64,000 nt of DNA from Candidatus Latescibacterota bacterium (GTDB lineage: Bacteria; Latescibacterota; UBA2968; GCA-2709665): NCBI GenBank assembly GCA_965219995.1, contig CBDCOX010000002.1, positions 4,736,001 to 4,800,000 on the forward strand, read 5' to 3'. Shown piece by piece: positions 14,335-31,181 of the stretch. The notes below the pieces were generated by a model, which worked only from the letters and a program-made list of their open reading frames with translations, searched no databases and was not told the DNA's origin. The stretch's first letter is position 1. Every line of letters begins with the position of its first letter. The position numbers were made by a program, and so were the translations under genes.

Positions 14335-14390
14335 AGGCAAGGGTGACGATTCAGGGAATGACGGACGGGTGGCGCGGCCGGGGCCGGCAA

Positions 14391-24139: not shown

Positions 24140-26080
24140 ATGAATCGGAACCAATCAGTTCCCGTGCACCGAATGTTGTTGCAGGATCCCGCCCGGTTGG
24201 GAGCCGCTTACGACCAGGCGGCCACGGAGCTGATCGCGGCCGTTGAGCCCGAGGGCTATTTCACGGGGTGGACGGCCGGGGATCTGGCGTGGCCGGCTGG
24301 CGGCGCCGGCGAGGTCGGCCTCCAGGGTTTGCGCAAGCGGGCCCGGATCGTGGACGCGATCTACCAGGGTGTACCCGGTTTGCGGGACAGCCGCCTGAAG
24401 GAGGCGCACGACCATTTCGCCGAACTGACGCCGGCTTACCACGAAGGAAACCGCATCTACCTGCGGCTCAGGGATGAATTCGTTGGCAGCGGCGCCGGAA
24501 CCGGCCCGGATTTTCTGAAACTGTACCAGTCCCTGTACGTGGATGCGCTCGCGAAAGGGGACGATTTTTCGCCGGACCCTGCCGAAACCGCACTGGCGCG
24601 AGCCCGGATCTCCCGGGTGCCGCTGTCGCACGCCAGGGCCGTTGCGGAAGCGCTGCCCAGCGTGACGACTGACGACGATCCGCGCTGGAAGGTGGAATAC
24701 GCCTGTACGGTAGATGGCGAGACCTGGAATGGAACCCTCCGGGAACTCCTTGAAGACGTGGCGCAGCGGACCCTGCACTACATCGCGGCCGGAGAGCTTC
24801 TCGCCACGCGCTACAACACCTACAATAACCTGGGCTGGTTTGGCAGTTCGGTGTGGAAGGTGGTCGCGGAAGCCGACGTGCGACTGTGTCGGATGGAGGA
24901 ATCGGATCCCGCACGCTCGGAGAGGCTAAAGGCCGACGTTGACCTGACACGCAGCATGCTCGTGGAGTTCCTGGCGGCGCACCGGGAGGACCCCGCCCGG
25001 CTCAGGCCTGAGAACTACTGGTACGGGCAACCGTACAGCTATCTGACGCGGGACATGATCGACGTGAGCGTCCGGATCGCTGAGGGCGTGAATTCGGCGG
25101 CAAGGGACCTGGACGGGGTGGCGGAGATGGCGCTCCCGCCCCTGCTGGCGGGCACCCACGTCGGCCGGTTTCTGGACTACGCCCACGTGGGCGTGACCGA
25201 GGAACTGACGTCCTTCCAGCGAAAGATCCGGATGTTGCGGTGGGCGAGTCGGTGCTGGCGGGTGGGAAAGCGCCGCCGGCAAATCGCGGACGAGAACCTG
25301 GGGCCGTCACAGCGGCACGAACGCGCGTGGGAGGTCTGGCTGGATTGGTCCCGGGACACGATGAACGCCTTCGGAATCCGGCTGGAAGTGACGATCGCAC
25401 CCTTGTTCCGGACGCTGGTCCGTGAAATGGACCTTGCAGCCGGCGGTCAGAGGATACTGTTCCTGCCGTCGCACCAGAGCATGCTCGAGCATTTCGTGGT
25501 GTTTTCCGTCTTCAACGATCCGGTGTTCCTGGATGCGATGGGTTGGGATCGGTCCCGCCCGGTCGTCCAGCTCGCCCGAACGGGACTGGCGAAGTCGACG
25601 TCGGTGAAGATCGGGTCCCATGAGATCAGTATCTTCGGGATGTCACCGGACAAGTTCGACCGGATGTTCGAGACGGTCGACGGTTTCATCACCCGTGACA
25701 GCGTGGATATCTCATCCCATACGATTCCGCGCATCCTGCAGGAGATGGAGCGCCGTCCGGGTGTGATCTATCCGATGGGCACGACGGCTTCGTTCGACGT
25801 GCAGTTGTTCCCGCTGCAGCACGCGCTTTTCGCGAAACTGCCCCAGGACGTCGTGATGGTCCCGATCGTGTTTCGGGGCAGCCACGCGCTCTGGCCCAAG
25901 TGTCCGGCGCGCAATCTGAATATCAATCCCGGCGTGATCGAGGCGGTGATCCTGCCCCCGATGCCGGGAGAGACCACGTTGCTGCCGCGCCGCCGGTCCC
26001 TGCGCATCCAGCTGGAGGCCGCCAATCTGCTTCAGGCGGTACATATTTCAAACCTGCTGAATCCGGAACCCTCGCGATGA
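24140..26080 (+). CDS. Divergent glycerolipid acyltransferase (PlsC/LPLAT-like C-terminal domain) with a large unassigned N-terminal domain; candidate DHAP acyltransferase
   Basis: Block I 'LFLPSHQSMLEH' (HX4E instead of HX4D), block III 'IYPMGT' (cf. FPEGT), block IV 'MVPIVFRG'. The role is inferred from context. Confidence 0.65.
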   Translation: MNRNQSVPVHRMLLQDPARLGAAYDQAATELIAAVEPEGYFTGWTAGDLAWPAGGAGEVGLQGLRKRARIVDAIYQGVPGLRDSRLKEAHDHFAELTPAYHEGNRIYLRLRDEFVGSGAGTGPDFLKLYQSLYVDALAKGDDFSPDPAETALARARISRVPLSHARAVAEALPSVTTDDDPRWKVEYACTVDGETWNGTLRELLEDVAQRTLHYIAAGELLATRYNTYNNLGWFGSSVWKVVAEADVRLCRMEESDPARSERLKADVDLTRSMLVEFLAAHREDPARLRPENYWYGQPYSYLTRDMIDVSVRIAEGVNSAARDLDGVAEMALPPLLAGTHVGRFLDYAHVGVTEELTSFQRKIRMLRWASRCWRVGKRRRQIADENLGPSQRHERAWEVWLDWSRDTMNAFGIRLEVTIAPLFRTLVREMDLAAGGQRILFLPSHQSMLEHFVVFSVFNDPVFLDAMGWDRSRPVVQLARTGLAKSTSVKIGSHEISIFGMSPDKFDRMFETVDGFITRDSVDISSHTIPRILQEMERRPGVIYPMGTTASFDVQLFPLQHALFAKLPQDVVMVPIVFRGSHALWPKCPARNLNINPGVIEAVILPPMPGETTLLPRRRSLRIQLEAANLLQAVHISNLLNPEPSR

Positions 26081-26170: not shown

Positions 26171-28018
26171 ATGCCTGAATGGGGAATAGCAACGCTTGCC
26201 GCAGCGGCCATTCTGCTGGTTGCGCTTCTGCCCAGACGGAGGGGGTCCGGAAGCGAACCGGACGAGTTTTTCGATCATTCCGAAGCGGAACGGTTTCCCC
26301 ACAAGTGGGGATACACGGACACGCGGTTCGAGTTTGTGGACGATCGGACGCTGAAGGTGACCGGCAGCCGGTACCCCATCTCGGGATACCGCATGCCGTT
26401 TCTGATCGACTTTGTGGAGGACGTGCTGGGCATTACGATCCGGAGGGAAGACGCGTTTGCCGAGCGCGCCGATATTGAAGCGCAGGAACCGAACGTGGAC
26501 GCGGCGTTCCGGAGTGCGATGAAGAAACGGTTCGGAGGCGGGCGGGTTTCATTCGATCCTGAAGCCAGGCTGATGCACAGCCACGGACAGCTGAGCGTGG
26601 AGGAAGTGTACCGCGTGATGTATGGAGATTCGCTTCCCAGGCTGGTCGACCTGGTGTTCTATCCCGAGGAGGAGGCCGACGTCAAGGCCATGATCGACCT
26701 CGCCAACGTGCATAACGTGTGCCTGGTGCCCTATGGCGGCGGGACGAACGTGAGCGGCGCGCTGGCGTGTCCGGCCGAGGAGCGGCGCACGATCGTTTCC
26801 GTGGATATGCGACGGATGGACCGGGTGGTGTGGATTGACGAGGCCAATCTTCAGGCCTGTGTCGAGGCCGGGATTTCGGGTAAGGCGATGGAGAGGGCGC
26901 TGGGAGATCGGGGGTACACGTCCGGACACGATCCCGACAGCGTGGAATTGTCCACGATGGGCGGCTGGATCTCGACAAATGCGAGCGGGATGAAGAAGAA
27001 CCGGTACGGCAATATCGAAGACATCGTGCTCGAGGCCACGCTGGTGACGCCCACCGGCGAAATCGCAACCCGCCAGGTCACGCCCAGAAACTCCACGGGC
27101 GTCCAGCCGCGGGGATTGCTGTTCGGAAGCGAAGGCAATTTCGGCATTATCACCACGGCGGTGATCAAGATTCATCCGATCCCCGAGGCGCGCAAGTACG
27201 GGGCGCTCGTTTTCCCGGCTTTCGAGAAGGGCGTTTCTTATCTGAAGGCGCTCCGGCAGACCGGCATGCTGCCCGCGAGCATCCGCCTGGTCAACAACAA
27301 CGAATTCCGGTTCGGACAGGCCCTGAAAGGGGAGCCGTCGTTCCTGAAGGGCGTCAAGGAAAAGATCCAGAAATTCGTCCTGTTGAAGGTGCTGGGTTTC
27401 GATCCGATGAAGATGGGCGCGTGCACCATCGTGATGGAGGGCACGCACGACGAAGTCCGCCAGCAGGAACGCACCATCTTCAGCCTGGCGAAGAAATACG
27501 GCGCCAAAAGCGCGGGCGCCAGCAACGGCAAGCGAGGATATTCGCTGACGTTCGGCATCGCCTATATTCGCGATTTCCTGAACCAATACGGCATTCTGGG
27601 CGAAACCTTCGAGACGTCTGTCCCCTGGGACCGGATCCACCGGGTTTGCAGTGCGGTATCGGAGGAACTGGTGACGCAGGCCGCCGCGCACAACGTGACG
27701 GGGAAACCCTACCTCTCGTACCGGGTGACGCAGACCTATCATACGGGCGTCTGCATTTATTTCACGATGGGTATTTACGGCAAGGGCCTGGAAAAGCCCG
27801 GCCGGACGTTTCACGCGATCGAACACCGGCTTCGGCAGGTGATCCTGGACAATGGAGGGTCTCTGTCGCACCACCACGGCGTTGGAAAGGTGAGGAAGGA
27901 CTTCCTGCCGCAGATCCAGAGCGATAACAGCATCCAGGTGATGCGTCAGGCCAAGAACGCGATGGATCCGAACAACATCTTCGGGATCCGGAATGGCGTT
28001 TTCGGGGAAATGGACTGA
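26171..28018 (+). CDS. agpS: Alkyl-dihydroxyacetonephosphate synthase (FAD-linked, VAO family)
   Basis: 'WGYTD', 'PYGGGTNVS', 'GHDPDSVELSTMGGWISTNASGMKKNRYGNIED', 'GSEGNFGII', 'SIRL', 'IAYIRD', 'FETSVPW', 'RVTQTYHTGVCIYF', 'GGSLSHHHGVGK'. These match AGPS motifs as I recall them from the eukaryotic enzymes. Confidence 0.92.
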   Translation: MPEWGIATLAAAAILLVALLPRRRGSGSEPDEFFDHSEAERFPHKWGYTDTRFEFVDDRTLKVTGSRYPISGYRMPFLIDFVEDVLGITIRREDAFAERADIEAQEPNVDAAFRSAMKKRFGGGRVSFDPEARLMHSHGQLSVEEVYRVMYGDSLPRLVDLVFYPEEEADVKAMIDLANVHNVCLVPYGGGTNVSGALACPAEERRTIVSVDMRRMDRVVWIDEANLQACVEAGISGKAMERALGDRGYTSGHDPDSVELSTMGGWISTNASGMKKNRYGNIEDIVLEATLVTPTGEIATRQVTPRNSTGVQPRGLLFGSEGNFGIITTAVIKIHPIPEARKYGALVFPAFEKGVSYLKALRQTGMLPASIRLVNNNEFRFGQALKGEPSFLKGVKEKIQKFVLLKVLGFDPMKMGACTIVMEGTHDEVRQQERTIFSLAKKYGAKSAGASNGKRGYSLTFGIAYIRDFLNQYGILGETFETSVPWDRIHRVCSAVSEELVTQAAAHNVTGKPYLSYRVTQTYHTGVCIYFTMGIYGKGLEKPGRTFHAIEHRLRQVILDNGGSLSHHHGVGKVRKDFLPQIQSDNSIQVMRQAKNAMDPNNIFGIRNGVFGEMD

Positions 28019-28257: not shown

Positions 28258-29064
28258 ATGTTCAACGGTAAAGTCGTCGCGATCACCGGTGCGTCGTCGG
28301 GTCTGGGCGCAACGCTGGCTCTGGCGTTCGCGGAAGAAGGGGCGGACCTGGCCCTTTTCGCGCTCGACGACGGCGTCCACGAAACGGCGGCTGAATGCCG
28401 GGAGCGCGGCAGCCGCGTGACGACCGCCACGGGCGACGTAGGAAAACCGGCGGACTGCGAGGGCTGGATCGACGCCGCGGTATCCGGACTGGGAGGCGTG
28501 GACTACCTGGTTGCGTGCGCGGGAATCAGCATGTGGGCGCGGTTCGACGAGGTGGAGGACCTGGCGATTTTTCGCAGGTTGATGGAAACGAACTACCTGG
28601 GTATCGTGCACTGCGTGTACTACGCGCTGCCTCATCTGAAGGCACGCGACGGGATGGTGGTGGCCATTTCCTCCATCCAGGGCAAGATCGGGGTTCCCCT
28701 GCACACGGGTTACGTGGCGTCCAAGCACGCCGTTCAGGGGTTCTTCGAGTCGCTGCGGACAGAACTGCTGGACACCGGCGTGGACGTGCTGACCGTGCTG
28801 CCACACTGGCTGCGCGGGACCAATCTGCGCAAGGCGGCCTTCGGCAAGGATGGCGGGGCTCTCGGCGGATCGAGCCGGAAGCACAGCAGGGAGTCGATAT
28901 CCCTGGACGACGCAAGCACGGCCATCATCGACGCGATGAAGAAGAGGAAGCGGGAACTGATCATCCCGTTCAAGCTCAGATTTCTGCCGTGGCTGCACCT
29001 GATCAATCCGAAGATCGTCGAATATCTGGTCACACGCGGGGTGGCGAAGCAGGAAAAAGGGTAG
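28258..29064 (+). CDS. SDR oxidoreductase, DHRS7B/PexRAP-like; candidate acyl/alkyl-DHAP reductase
   Basis: 'VVAITGASSGLG', 'ISSIQGK', catalytic 'YVASKHAVQGFFESLRTEL'. The SDR call is certain; the subfamily is inferred from motif resemblance and context. Confidence 0.8.
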   Translation: MFNGKVVAITGASSGLGATLALAFAEEGADLALFALDDGVHETAAECRERGSRVTTATGDVGKPADCEGWIDAAVSGLGGVDYLVACAGISMWARFDEVEDLAIFRRLMETNYLGIVHCVYYALPHLKARDGMVVAISSIQGKIGVPLHTGYVASKHAVQGFFESLRTELLDTGVDVLTVLPHWLRGTNLRKAAFGKDGGALGGSSRKHSRESISLDDASTAIIDAMKKRKRELIIPFKLRFLPWLHLINPKIVEYLVTRGVAKQEKG

Positions 29065-29103: not shown

Positions 29104-29790
29104 TCAGGAAAAGATCCCGTCCACGTCCAGGTGTTTATCAATCAGTTCGGGCATGCGTCCGAGATGCCCCGAATCCACGTCCACGCCGGGATCGAATGGC
29201 ACGATACCCAGTGAGTCGACCCCGGTGAGGCGAGAAATCACGTCCGGACTGCCGCGGGCGGCCCTCGGATCGCCGGGCCCGGTTGTGTTAAAGACAACGC
29301 CCCGGGTTTCCAGGTTGCGGGTTTTCGCGGCTTCGAGCGTGAGCAGGGTGTGATTGATCGTGCCGAGCGCCGCGCGGGCGACCACCAGCAGGGGCAGGCC
29401 CAGGCGGGCGGCAAGGTCCGCGACCAGGAGGTCGTCCCGAATTGGAACCAGCAGCCCGCCGACGCCTTCGACCAGAACGGTGTCATGAAGGCGTATCAGG
29501 CGGCTATATGCGGCCACGACCGGTTCCAGCGTGATCTGCCGGCCCTCCAGTTCGGCGGCCATGTTCGGCGACAACGGCGCTTCGAGTCGCACCGGATTGA
29601 TGAGTTCAAGATCATCGGAAACGCCTGCCGACCGGATGAGGAGTCGTGCGTCGGCCGCGCCTCCCGACGAGATGGGCTTGAAGACGCCCACGTCCACGCC
29701 CCGCCTGCGCAGAACGGCGGCGATCCCTGCGGTGATGGCGGTCTTGCCTGCGCCGGTGTCGGTGGCGGTGACGAAGACTCCCCTGGTCAT
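29104..29790 (-). CDS. bioD: Dethiobiotin synthase
   Basis: 'FVTATDTGAGKT', 'FKPISSG', 'VEGVGGLLVP', 'LGTINHTLL'. Confidence 0.96.
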   Translation of the reverse strand: MTRGVFVTATDTGAGKTAITAGIAAVLRRRGVDVGVFKPISSGGAADARLLIRSAGVSDDLELINPVRLEAPLSPNMAAELEGRQITLEPVVAAYSRLIRLHDTVLVEGVGGLLVPIRDDLLVADLAARLGLPLLVVARAALGTINHTLLTLEAAKTRNLETRGVVFNTTGPGDPRAARGSPDVISRLTGVDSLGIVPFDPGVDVDSGHLGRMPELIDKHLDVDGIFS

Positions 29791-29810
29791 AGTCTTGTTG
29801 TTCCCGGAAG

Positions 29811-31181
29811 TCAGGCCGCGTCCGTCACTTCGCGGATGGACTCGTAGGCGATATCCAGCAGCTTTTCGAGATCGCGGTCGGAAATGGCCAGGGGCGGCAT
29901 GAGGACGATGGTGTCCCCAAGGGGGCGGATGAGCAGACCCCGTTTTCGGGCCTCGACGCAGACGCGGTTACCCATTCTTTCCGACGTCGGATACGGCCGG
30001 CCGTCGGACCTGTCGGCAACCAGTTCGATGCCGGCGATGAACCCGCACCGGCGCACGTCGCCCGCGTGCGCGAGGGTCCTGAAGCGGTCGAGTCCGCGCG
30101 CGAGAAGCCGTATCCTGGGGCGCAGCGACGCCAGTACGTTGTGGCTCTCGAATCGTTCGATGGCGGCCAGCGCCGCGGCGCAGCCGAGCGGATTGCCTGT
30201 AAACGTGTGGCCGTGGAATAACGTCCTGCCTTCGCTGTCTTCGCCCAGAAACGCATCGAAGATCTCGCTGGTCGTCAGCGTCGCGGCTACGGGCAGGTAA
30301 CCGCCCGTGAGGCCCTTGCCCAGGCAGAGAATGTCCGGCGCGACGTCTTCTTTCTCACAGGCGAACATGGCGCCCGTACGGCCGAAGCCGGTTGCGACCT
30401 CGTCAGCGATGAGCAGCACGTCGTGCGCCCTGCAGAGCTCGGCGACCCTCTGTAGATAGCCCTCAGGATGAACCAGCATCCCGCCCGCGCCCTGAATGAG
30501 GGGTTCGATGATGAAGGCCGCGATGCGGTGGGCGTCCCGTTTCAGGATTTCTTCGATCGCCCGCAAGCAGCCCTGGTTGCACGCATTTTCGCGGGCGCAG
30601 AACGTACAGCGATACGGATGGGGCGCCGGGGCATTCAGCGACTTGAACAGGAGCGGGCCGTACGCCTTGTGAAAAAGGTCGATATTCCCCACGCTCATGG
30701 CGCCGACGGTGTCGCCATGATAGCTCCGCTCGAGGCTCAGAAAGCTGGTTTTTCCAGGTCTCGGATCCGGTCTTTGCCGCCAGTACTGGAAGGCGATCTT
30801 GAGCGCGATTTCTACGGCGCAGGCGCCCGTGTCCGAGTAGAACACGCGGTCCAGACCGGCAGGCGTGATTTCCACAAGTTTCTCGGCCAGCCGGATCGCG
30901 GGTACGTTGGAAAGTCCCAGCAGCGTGCTGTGCGCCACCCGGTCCAGTTGTCCGCGGATGGCGGTGTCGATTTCCGCGGCGCGGTGACCGTGCACGTTGC
31001 ACCACATGGAGGAGTAACCGTCGAGGTACTGGTTCCCGTCGATGTCTTCCAGGTAGACGCCGTCCGCGCGCGCGATGACGATGGGGTCCTCGCGCGCGTA
31101 CGTGCGCATCTGGGTGAACGGGTGCCAAACGAGGCGCCGGTCGAGGTCTTTCAGGCGGGCGTTTTCATCGGGGACTTCCAC
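29811..31181 (-). CDS. bioA: Adenosylmethionine-8-amino-7-oxononanoate aminotransferase
   Basis: 'VWHPFTQM', 'SYHGDT', 'DEVATGFGRTG', PLP lysine in 'LGKGLTGGY', 'FHGHTFTGNP'. Confidence 0.96.
   Translation of the reverse strand: MEVPDENARLKDLDRRLVWHPFTQMRTYAREDPIVIARADGVYLEDIDGNQYLDGYSSMWCNVHGHRAAEIDTAIRGQLDRVAHSTLLGLSNVPAIRLAEKLVEITPAGLDRVFYSDTGACAVEIALKIAFQYWRQRPDPRPGKTSFLSLERSYHGDTVGAMSVGNIDLFHKAYGPLLFKSLNAPAPHPYRCTFCARENACNQGCLRAIEEILKRDAHRIAAFIIEPLIQGAGGMLVHPEGYLQRVAELCRAHDVLLIADEVATGFGRTGAMFACEKEDVAPDILCLGKGLTGGYLPVAATLTTSEIFDAFLGEDSEGRTLFHGHTFTGNPLGCAAALAAIERFESHNVLASLRPRIRLLARGLDRFRTLAHAGDVRRCGFIAGIELVADRSDGRPYPTSERMGNRVCVEARKRGLLIRPLGDTIVLMPPLAISDRDLEKLLDIAYESIREVTDAA

Follow-up and report, generated by a model that had tools for sequence, protein, structure and literature searches.

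A candidate backbone acyltransferase of Latescibacterota, encoded with ether-lipid genes and distributed almost opposite to PlsX, PlsY and GpsA

A conserved two-domain protein in an ether-lipid gene cluster

The stretch of DNA analysed here (64,000 nucleotides of Candidatus Latescibacterota bacterium, assembly GCA_965219995.1, contig CBDCOX010000002.1, positions 4,736,001 to 4,800,000 of the forward strand; hereafter the window) carries four genes on one strand, namely a fatty acyl-CoA reductase (FAR), a two-domain protein here called X, an alkyl-dihydroxyacetone phosphate (alkyl-DHAP) synthase (AGPS) and a classical short-chain dehydrogenase/reductase (SDR) (Table 1). FAR and X are separated by 21 nt. 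The AGPS matches guinea-pig alkyl-DHAP synthase 4bby (phmmer E 9.6e-151, residues 44-608) and is, by this match, a true orthologue. The SDR would be a candidate acyl/alkyl-DHAP reductase, an activity that belongs to an SDR in mammals and yeast; its orthologue adjoins AGPS in many genomes, and from family to family the presence of one follows that of the other. The cluster thus appears to cover the animal ether-lipid pathway in all its four activities, X taking the slot of the acyltransferase GNPAT.

The X gene is conserved. Searches found 86 full-length relatives of 465-690 aa (nearly all 633-690) with 38-100% identity and E values down to 0, and those that carry a name are all called 'hypothetical protein' except for one JGI entry, '1-acyl-sn-glycerol-3-phosphate acyltransferase'. 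The whole of X and each of its halves gave zero matches in Pfam and NCBIfam even at E<=10, so that X does not reach the PF01553 gathering cut-off, and a profile search of PDB sequences returned chance matches alone (E>=0.12). Among 31 relatives, 14 matched PF01553 at E<=1, the best at 8.9e-08.

Residue counts for X were taken from an alignment of 31 family sequences (A1), in which H445, H451, R480, P540, T548, R579, G580 and H582 are invariant. The first-pass annotation of this DNA had described X as an HX4E acyltransferase with a block III that lacks its Glu, and each motif it quoted occurs in the protein where it had been placed. The Glu at position 450 is present in the window and its nearer relatives (8/31), but it is not a family trait, as 23/31 sequences have Asp; the family motif is therefore the ordinary HX4D, with a conservative, clade-local D-to-E swap in the clade of the window. 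The block I dyad is accordingly present throughout the family (H445 in 31/31, an acidic residue at 450). LARTGL would be block II, judging from where it falls along the sequence and within the fold. Canonical block III reads (F/Y)xEGT(R), with Glu and Arg, neither of which is conserved in X. The Glu position (M546) is unconstrained (M14/A9/T2/V2/S2/Q1/E1), so that the missing Glu is true for the whole family, and the Arg position (T549) is T in 28 and V in three. The further step from these two features to DHAP specificity is not accepted. Both were dropped as signs of the acceptor, as HX4E is a clade-local swap; GNPAT itself presumably retains the block III Glu.

The AlphaFold2 model of X, built on A1, is confident (pLDDT 88.9, pTM 0.91), and its C-terminal part has the alpha/beta fold common to PlsC and GPAT. 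The top Foldseek match in the PDB is Thermotoga maritima PlsC (5kym; E 5.8e-4, TM 0.62-0.67, target-normalised), chain residues 1..247 of which align to residues 356..646 of X at 10% identity; GPAT1, plastid GPATs and PatA follow. Structure prediction and Foldseek hence bear out the LPLAT fold that had been claimed, with the catalytic His intact. Two basic helices open the module (13 K/R against 6 D/E over 57 residues counted) and probably act as a membrane-surface anchor, a role proposed from the anchoring helices of PlsC. No transmembrane helix is predicted in X, as no 19-residue stretch exceeds a Kyte-Doolittle (KD) value of 1.13.

The N-terminal domain matches nothing known, as had been noted, though it measures about 355 aa and not the ~400 first proposed, since the PlsC-like module begins at residue 356. 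Modelled alone it reaches pLDDT 85 and pTM 0.83, while Foldseek returned no informative neighbour (best E 0.1, TM<=0.24). The two peptides singled out earlier, TRYNTYNNLGWFGSSVWKV (residues 223-241) and YWYGQPYSYLTRDMID (293-308), lie in this domain, which has the conserved motifs RYNxxxNxxWxG (224-235) and YWYGxxYSYLTRDxxD (293-308). Many polar and aromatic residues are invariant in its alignment (A2), and the polar ones suggest a specific binding or catalytic site and not a passive spacer. A hidden Markov model of the domain, run over 1.84 billion representative proteins, matched 47 sequences, of which nine (607-665 aa) share the architecture of the window protein; the other 38 are of <=370 aa and look like pieces, and no fusion of the domain to another partner was seen. 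The earlier suggestion that the domain might scaffold AGPS or FAR is neither favoured nor disfavoured, as co-folding of the domain (A2) with FAR (A3), run without controls, scored 0.00 and is no evidence either way.

Table 1. Positions of the features discussed, in window coordinates
Feature	Position	Strand	Basis or remark
yceD-rpmF-fabH-fabD-fabG-acpP-fabF-rnc operon	15100 to 9100	-	
rpmF-fabH spacer, 50 nt, site of the missing plsX	14341..14390	-	operon order vs relatives
FAR, 544 aa	22484..24118	+	PF07993 NAD_binding_4 6.5e-64; PF03015 Sterile 2.3e-16
X, 646 aa, ATG start, two domains	24140..26080	+	open reading frame confirmed real
X N-domain, residues 1-355, long-helix bundle with one beta-hairpin (186-199)	24140..25204	+	predicted structure
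X acyltransferase (LPLAT/PlsC-like) domain, residues 356-646	25205..26077	+	fold match to PlsC
Two basic helices, 358-384 and 389-411 (residues 358-411)	25211..25372	+	AlphaFold2 model
Block I PSHQSMLEH, residues 443-451 (H445, E450, H451), catalytic dyad	25466..25492	+	A1 conservation
Block II-like LARTGL, invariant R480	25571..25588	+	A1 conservation
Block III-like IYPMGT, residues 543-548, without Glu or Arg; consensus YPxGTT	25766..25783	+	A1: T548 31/31, T549 28/31
Block IV-like VVMVPIVFRGSH (P575; invariant R579, G580, H582)	25850..25885	+	A1
AGPS, 615 aa	26171..28018	+	FAD_binding_4 and FAD-oxidase_C; 4bby match
Hydrophobic AGPS N-terminus, residues 2-22	26171-26240	+	KD 1.89
Classical SDR, 268 aa; candidate acyl/alkyl-DHAP reductase	28258..29064	+	PF00106 1.5e-43
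bioD and bioA (AAA_26 dethiobiotin synthetase-like, Aminotran_3)	29104-31181	-	convergent to the cluster
Patatin-like phospholipase, 770 aa	50760-53069	-	PF01734; not linked to the cluster

Distribution of X and loss of PlsX, PlsY and GpsA

The window has no plsX between rpmF and fabH, a clean absence. In two relatives from the phylum that have no X (G010, locus L088, and G035, locus L089), plsX lies exactly between these two genes and the rest of the operon order is unchanged. The genome to which the window belongs (5.44 Mb in 2 contigs, 98.6% complete) yielded neither PlsY (PF02660) nor PlsX (PF02504), and its single PF01553 match, in a 301-aa frame, is taken as PlsC. Exactly one PF01553 match was likewise found in 14/15 genomes of the same genus and in 21/21 genomes of genus g11; therefore no extra canonical acyltransferase offsets the loss in these genera.

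The pattern extends across the phylum. A scan of 168 species genomes contrasted families f1-f4 (132 genomes, that of the window included) with the other families (36 genomes). X was found in 130 of the former and two of the latter (G008 and G034), FAR in 128 and three, AGPS in 124 and one, and the SDR orthologue in 119 and one. The canonical enzymes are distributed the other way round: PlsY in 0/132 against 29/36, GpsA (PF07479) in 0/132 against 29/36, and PlsX over the cut-off in 1/132 (G145, on a small contig) against 33/36. The distribution of X is nearly complementary to that of PlsX, PlsY and GpsA, and the loss of these three in the X-bearing families f1-f4 is new here, beyond what the first-pass annotation had found. 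Because kin are not independent, this is to be read as a clade-level pattern, and no statistics are given. Outside the class of the window, the 99% complete genome G008 repeats the pattern, with FAR-X present and PlsX, PlsY and GpsA all missing; it counts as a second data point, from a lineage not necessarily independent of f1-f4. All four of X, PlsX, PlsY and GpsA are present in G034, and all four are absent from G031.

Some searches of the genome bear little on the pathway. PEDS1/CarF (PF10520) was not found, an uninformative absence, as control genomes also gave no match, and the same applies to WS/DGAT (PF03007), for which the control search matched no genome. PF13685, which we take to be the Fe-ADH family that includes glycerol-1-phosphate dehydrogenase, gave weak partial matches of a kind also seen in 13 control genomes, and these say nothing on glycerol-1-phosphate.

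The gene neighbourhoods were surveyed in 79 related loci from species-representative genomes. FAR lies directly upstream of X in 49, with AGPS in 40 and SDR in 37 of these 49. Among the nine FAR-X loci without AGPS, four end <2.5 kb after X and five (L022, L039, L044, L062 and L066) have room for it. The 30 loci without FAR hold the more distant X sequences (39-46% identity) of family f4, where X stands alone, FAR forms the N-terminal portion of a ~1400-aa ElbD-like fusion protein, and AGPS and SDR are adjacent elsewhere in the genome. One such fusion (L085:4284-8504, minus strand) combines FAR, AMP-binding and PF01553; another (L086:6132-10325, plus strand) combines FAR and AMP-binding, with no PF01553 match at E<=0.001. 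An f4 AGPS-SDR pair located apart from X is found at L084:4565-8314. FAR and X are separate open reading frames, and no fused form occurs among the 86 relatives, the 'longer' length class not having been searched. Open frames of 1042-1098 aa around X (genera g29 and g31) were considered as fusions and rejected on the one case examined, L080, where the added upstream segment matches nothing in Pfam and resembles read-through of GC-rich sequence.

Several loci depart from the common arrangement. In three that lack AGPS, two from Eisenbacteria (L062:4268-13679 and L066) and that of G039 (L039:4377-12229), FAR and X are followed by a HAD hydrolase (PF12710), further genes and a LarA-like gene (Lar_N, 515 aa), with a 689-aa open reading frame of unknown function and a Zn-dependent alcohol dehydrogenase also in between in L062; such loci may be an AGPS-independent, Elb-like lipid module. 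A divergent AGPS-like paralogue, 45-46% identical to the AGPS of the window, occurs in three genomes without the standard AGPS-SDR pair, directly after X in two (L036:7959-9662 and G038:C96:7953-9662) and on another contig than X in the third (G151:C4:36341-38050). The 2.0-Mb genome G168 (locus L044), which has kept FAR-X, carries an AGPS homologue in two adjacent frames (G168:C1:1753164-1754916; query 30-424 and 424-613) that may be a frameshift or pseudogene. In at least 13 g11 genomes the FAR alignment crosses one TAG near its C-terminal end, just before X, and an earlier FAR stop or a gene overlap is possible. In the window itself, the hydrophobic N-terminus of AGPS suggests a membrane anchor, which peroxisomal AGPS is not known to have. 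The position of bioD and bioA is kept in 18/79 related loci, mainly those of the nearest relatives.

Proposed role of X and competing explanations

On balance, the comparative evidence favours X as the sn-1 acyltransferase of the lineage, with DHAP as its main acceptor. The GNPAT-like role advanced in the first-pass annotation fits both the FAR-X-AGPS-SDR cluster and the loss of PlsX, PlsY and GpsA, although the argument from motifs was not upheld. DHAP is favoured because AGPS needs 1-acyl-DHAP, for which genomes with a single PlsC offer no other candidate maker, because the X gene lies in one cluster with AGPS and a reductase from the fitting class, and because, as a DHAP-first route predicts, the loss of PlsX and PlsY extends to GpsA, which turns DHAP into the glycerol-3-phosphate (G3P) used by PlsY or PlsB. 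X is not orthologous to GNPAT, but it looks like the stand-in, throughout the class, for the enzymes that canonically begin phospholipid synthesis in bacteria.

Mechanistically, X would be a peripheral membrane enzyme that adds the first acyl chain (sn-1) to the glycerol backbone, most likely with DHAP as acceptor (the GNPAT reaction). His445, positioned by Glu450 (an Asp in most relatives), would deprotonate the C1 hydroxyl of the acceptor, which would then attack an acyl thioester (acyl-ACP or acyl-CoA), with the invariant R480, T548, R579 and H582 as candidate phosphate-binding residues. The resulting 1-acyl-DHAP would pass to AGPS, which would swap the acyl group for a fatty alcohol from the FAR encoded upstream. 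The SDR would reduce alkyl-DHAP, and presumably acyl-DHAP too, to 1-alkyl- or 1-acyl-G3P, to be acylated by the single canonical PlsC of the genome. The module would thereby have replaced PlsX, PlsY and GpsA in the class. A bolder extension, which we put forward only tentatively, is that one entire class of Latescibacterota builds all its glycerolipids by a eukaryote-like acyl-DHAP route through X, AGPS and the reductase, with 1-O-alkyl ether lipids as a bulk membrane component and the N-domain as a new pathway-specific module, for instance a substrate-channelling or regulatory cap.

Various observations weigh against DHAP as the acceptor or narrow the case for it. All of the support for the role of X comes from comparative genomics, where one clade-level event, or a few such events, make up most of the pattern. 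AGPS is missing from seven fairly complete genomes with X (G008, G037, G039, G149, G150, G152 and G153); in the five tested, the best FAD-oxidase matches are 26-32% identical and never full-length. (G061 and G074 also lack AGPS, but these genomes are fragmented.) At E<=1e-50 the SDR has no match in six of the seven, and at E<=1e-25 it has none in G008, G037 and G039, the latter being the one threshold at which G008 was assessed. By family tallies all seven also lack PlsY and GpsA. That X is kept without AGPS and, where tested, without SDR therefore points to G3P, dual specificity or another reductase. Further, two genomes of Eisenbacteria, both without AGPS, have retained a PlsY-like gene alongside FAR-X, f4 has a second PF01553 acyltransferase domain inside its ElbD-like fusion, and G031, without X, PlsX, PlsY and GpsA, must use another route that therefore exists in the phylum.

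Collectively, these genomes give some weight to the explanation that X is a G3P acyltransferase, an analogue of PlsB that makes lysophosphatidic acid directly, with its link to FAR and AGPS secondary, or that it is dual-specific with G3P as the main acceptor. The seven genomes without AGPS would then have in X the sn-1 enzyme they otherwise lack, as they hold no other known sn-1 enzyme and six of them are without the cluster reductase; four FGGY-kinase matches in the genome of the window could supply G3P, and the fold of X matches acyltransferases of G3P and lysophosphatidic acid. We nevertheless consider this unlikely, as none of the 132 f1-f4 genomes has GpsA and 124 of them have an AGPS that needs acyl-DHAP, with no other DHAP acyltransferase candidate in single-PlsC genomes. 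The presence of AGPS and SDR in most FAR-X loci argues in the same direction, and the block III residues that bind G3P are absent from X. The persistence of X where AGPS is absent, in turn, tells against a different suggestion, a weaker rival in which X is a specialised PlsC reserved for the sn-2 acylation of 1-O-alkyl-G3P. A PF01553 gene of the canonical PlsC-like kind is kept in every X genome examined, and an sn-2 role would not explain how 132 genomes without PlsY (and with PlsX in one) carry out the sn-1 step or obtain acyl-DHAP; it is hence quite improbable.

FAR-X is the most constant pairing, kept without AGPS and SDR in G008, G037, G039 and the Eisenbacteria, which raises the question of whether X works with FAR alone, either esterifying the fatty alcohol as a wax-ester synthase or forming an AGPS-independent, Elb-like ether-lipid pair. 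The HAD hydrolase gene that follows X in the Eisenbacteria and G039 is reminiscent of ElbB of the Myxococcus xanthus elb operon, and no WS/DGAT that might make wax esters was found in the genome of the window, with the caveat on that search given above. However, all 30 f4 loci have X without an adjacent FAR, which sits there in an ElbD-like fusion with its own acyltransferase domain; the loss of PlsX, PlsY and GpsA would go unexplained; and we know of no PlsC-type LPLAT that acts as a wax synthase, so that such a role is doubtful at best. The least credible alternative is that X is a non-catalytic pseudo-enzyme, a regulator or scaffold for the ether-lipid enzymes. The window protein falls below PF01553 thresholds, its block III is degenerate and it bears a large extra domain, yet the catalytic His and several pocket Arg and His residues are invariant, and the acidic partner (D/E) is kept, among sequences of 38-100% identity.

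Significance and comparison with known systems

To our knowledge, every characterised bacterium makes lysophosphatidic acid via PlsB or PlsX/PlsY. Here are 132 genomes without these genes (one has plsX, on a small contig), and a single uncharacterised protein family is the evident substitute. Should X acylate DHAP, a GNPAT would have evolved a second time, independently, and the class would be the first bacterial lineage known to us in which the whole of membrane synthesis runs through the acyl-DHAP route. The proteins concerned are nearly all labelled 'hypothetical', so that the family also bears on genome annotation. Further, it bears on which organisms make the non-isoprenoid alkyl-glycerol ethers of sponges, sediments and stratified waters, and on the origin of the eukaryotic ether-lipid pathway (PMC13012113). 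From such settings, agps and elbD homologues of Latescibacterota metagenome-assembled genomes (MAGs) have been noted before (PMC11868695; bioRxiv 10.64898/2026.06.23.733905; cf. PMC9426513), PMC11868695 reporting agps in 67/92 Black Sea MAGs. In the partial texts on bacterial ether lipids and Latescibacterota that were searched, no mention was found of the X family or of the absence of plsX, plsY and gpsA, a text search being blind to unnamed proteins.

Among known systems, the closest in pathway place are GNPAT/DHAPAT (EC 2.3.1.42) and its FAR-fused form FARAT (M. xanthus MXAN_1675, Tetrahymena TtFARAT), which like X stand beside FAR and AGPS, the acyltransferase coming after FAR. In M. xanthus, AGPS (MXAN_1676) shares an operon with a fusion of FAR and a GNPAT-like acyltransferase (MXAN_1675) and with MXAN_1674, in that order; there, and in the FARAT fusions of many eukaryotes, FAR precedes the acyltransferase within one protein (PMC13012113, PMC9131029), whereas X is not fused to FAR. 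X shares the superfamily and the HX4D catalytic chemistry of GNPAT. It differs in that its acyltransferase is a small PlsC-like C-terminal module behind a 355-aa helical domain found nowhere else, a comparison made without direct alignment to GNPAT, and in that its block III has neither Glu nor Arg. In GNPAT, GPAT1 and PlsB the acyltransferase core is followed by a large C-terminal domain, which X does not have.

The ElbD protein of the myxobacterial elb operon, a fusion of FAR, acyl-CoA synthetase, carrier and AGPAT, resembles the X cluster in joining a FAR to an LPLAT acyltransferase for ether lipids, and the HAD gene after X in some loci recalls elbB, which accompanies elbD (PMC9131029). 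X, however, has no adenylation or carrier domain and coexists with ElbD-like proteins in f4, so that neither replaces the other. From PlsC (5kym) X is set apart by an identity of 10%, a score short of PF01553, the extra N-domain and the separate canonical PlsC of the same genome, and its proposed position (sn-1) and acceptor (DHAP) differ as well. With PlsX/PlsY (and GpsA) and with PlsB it would share the job, the first acylation of the backbone. Regardless of this shared task, X is unrelated to PlsY in sequence and fold and would need no acyl-phosphate step, and compared with PlsB it lacks the large C-terminal part and differs in its N-domain.

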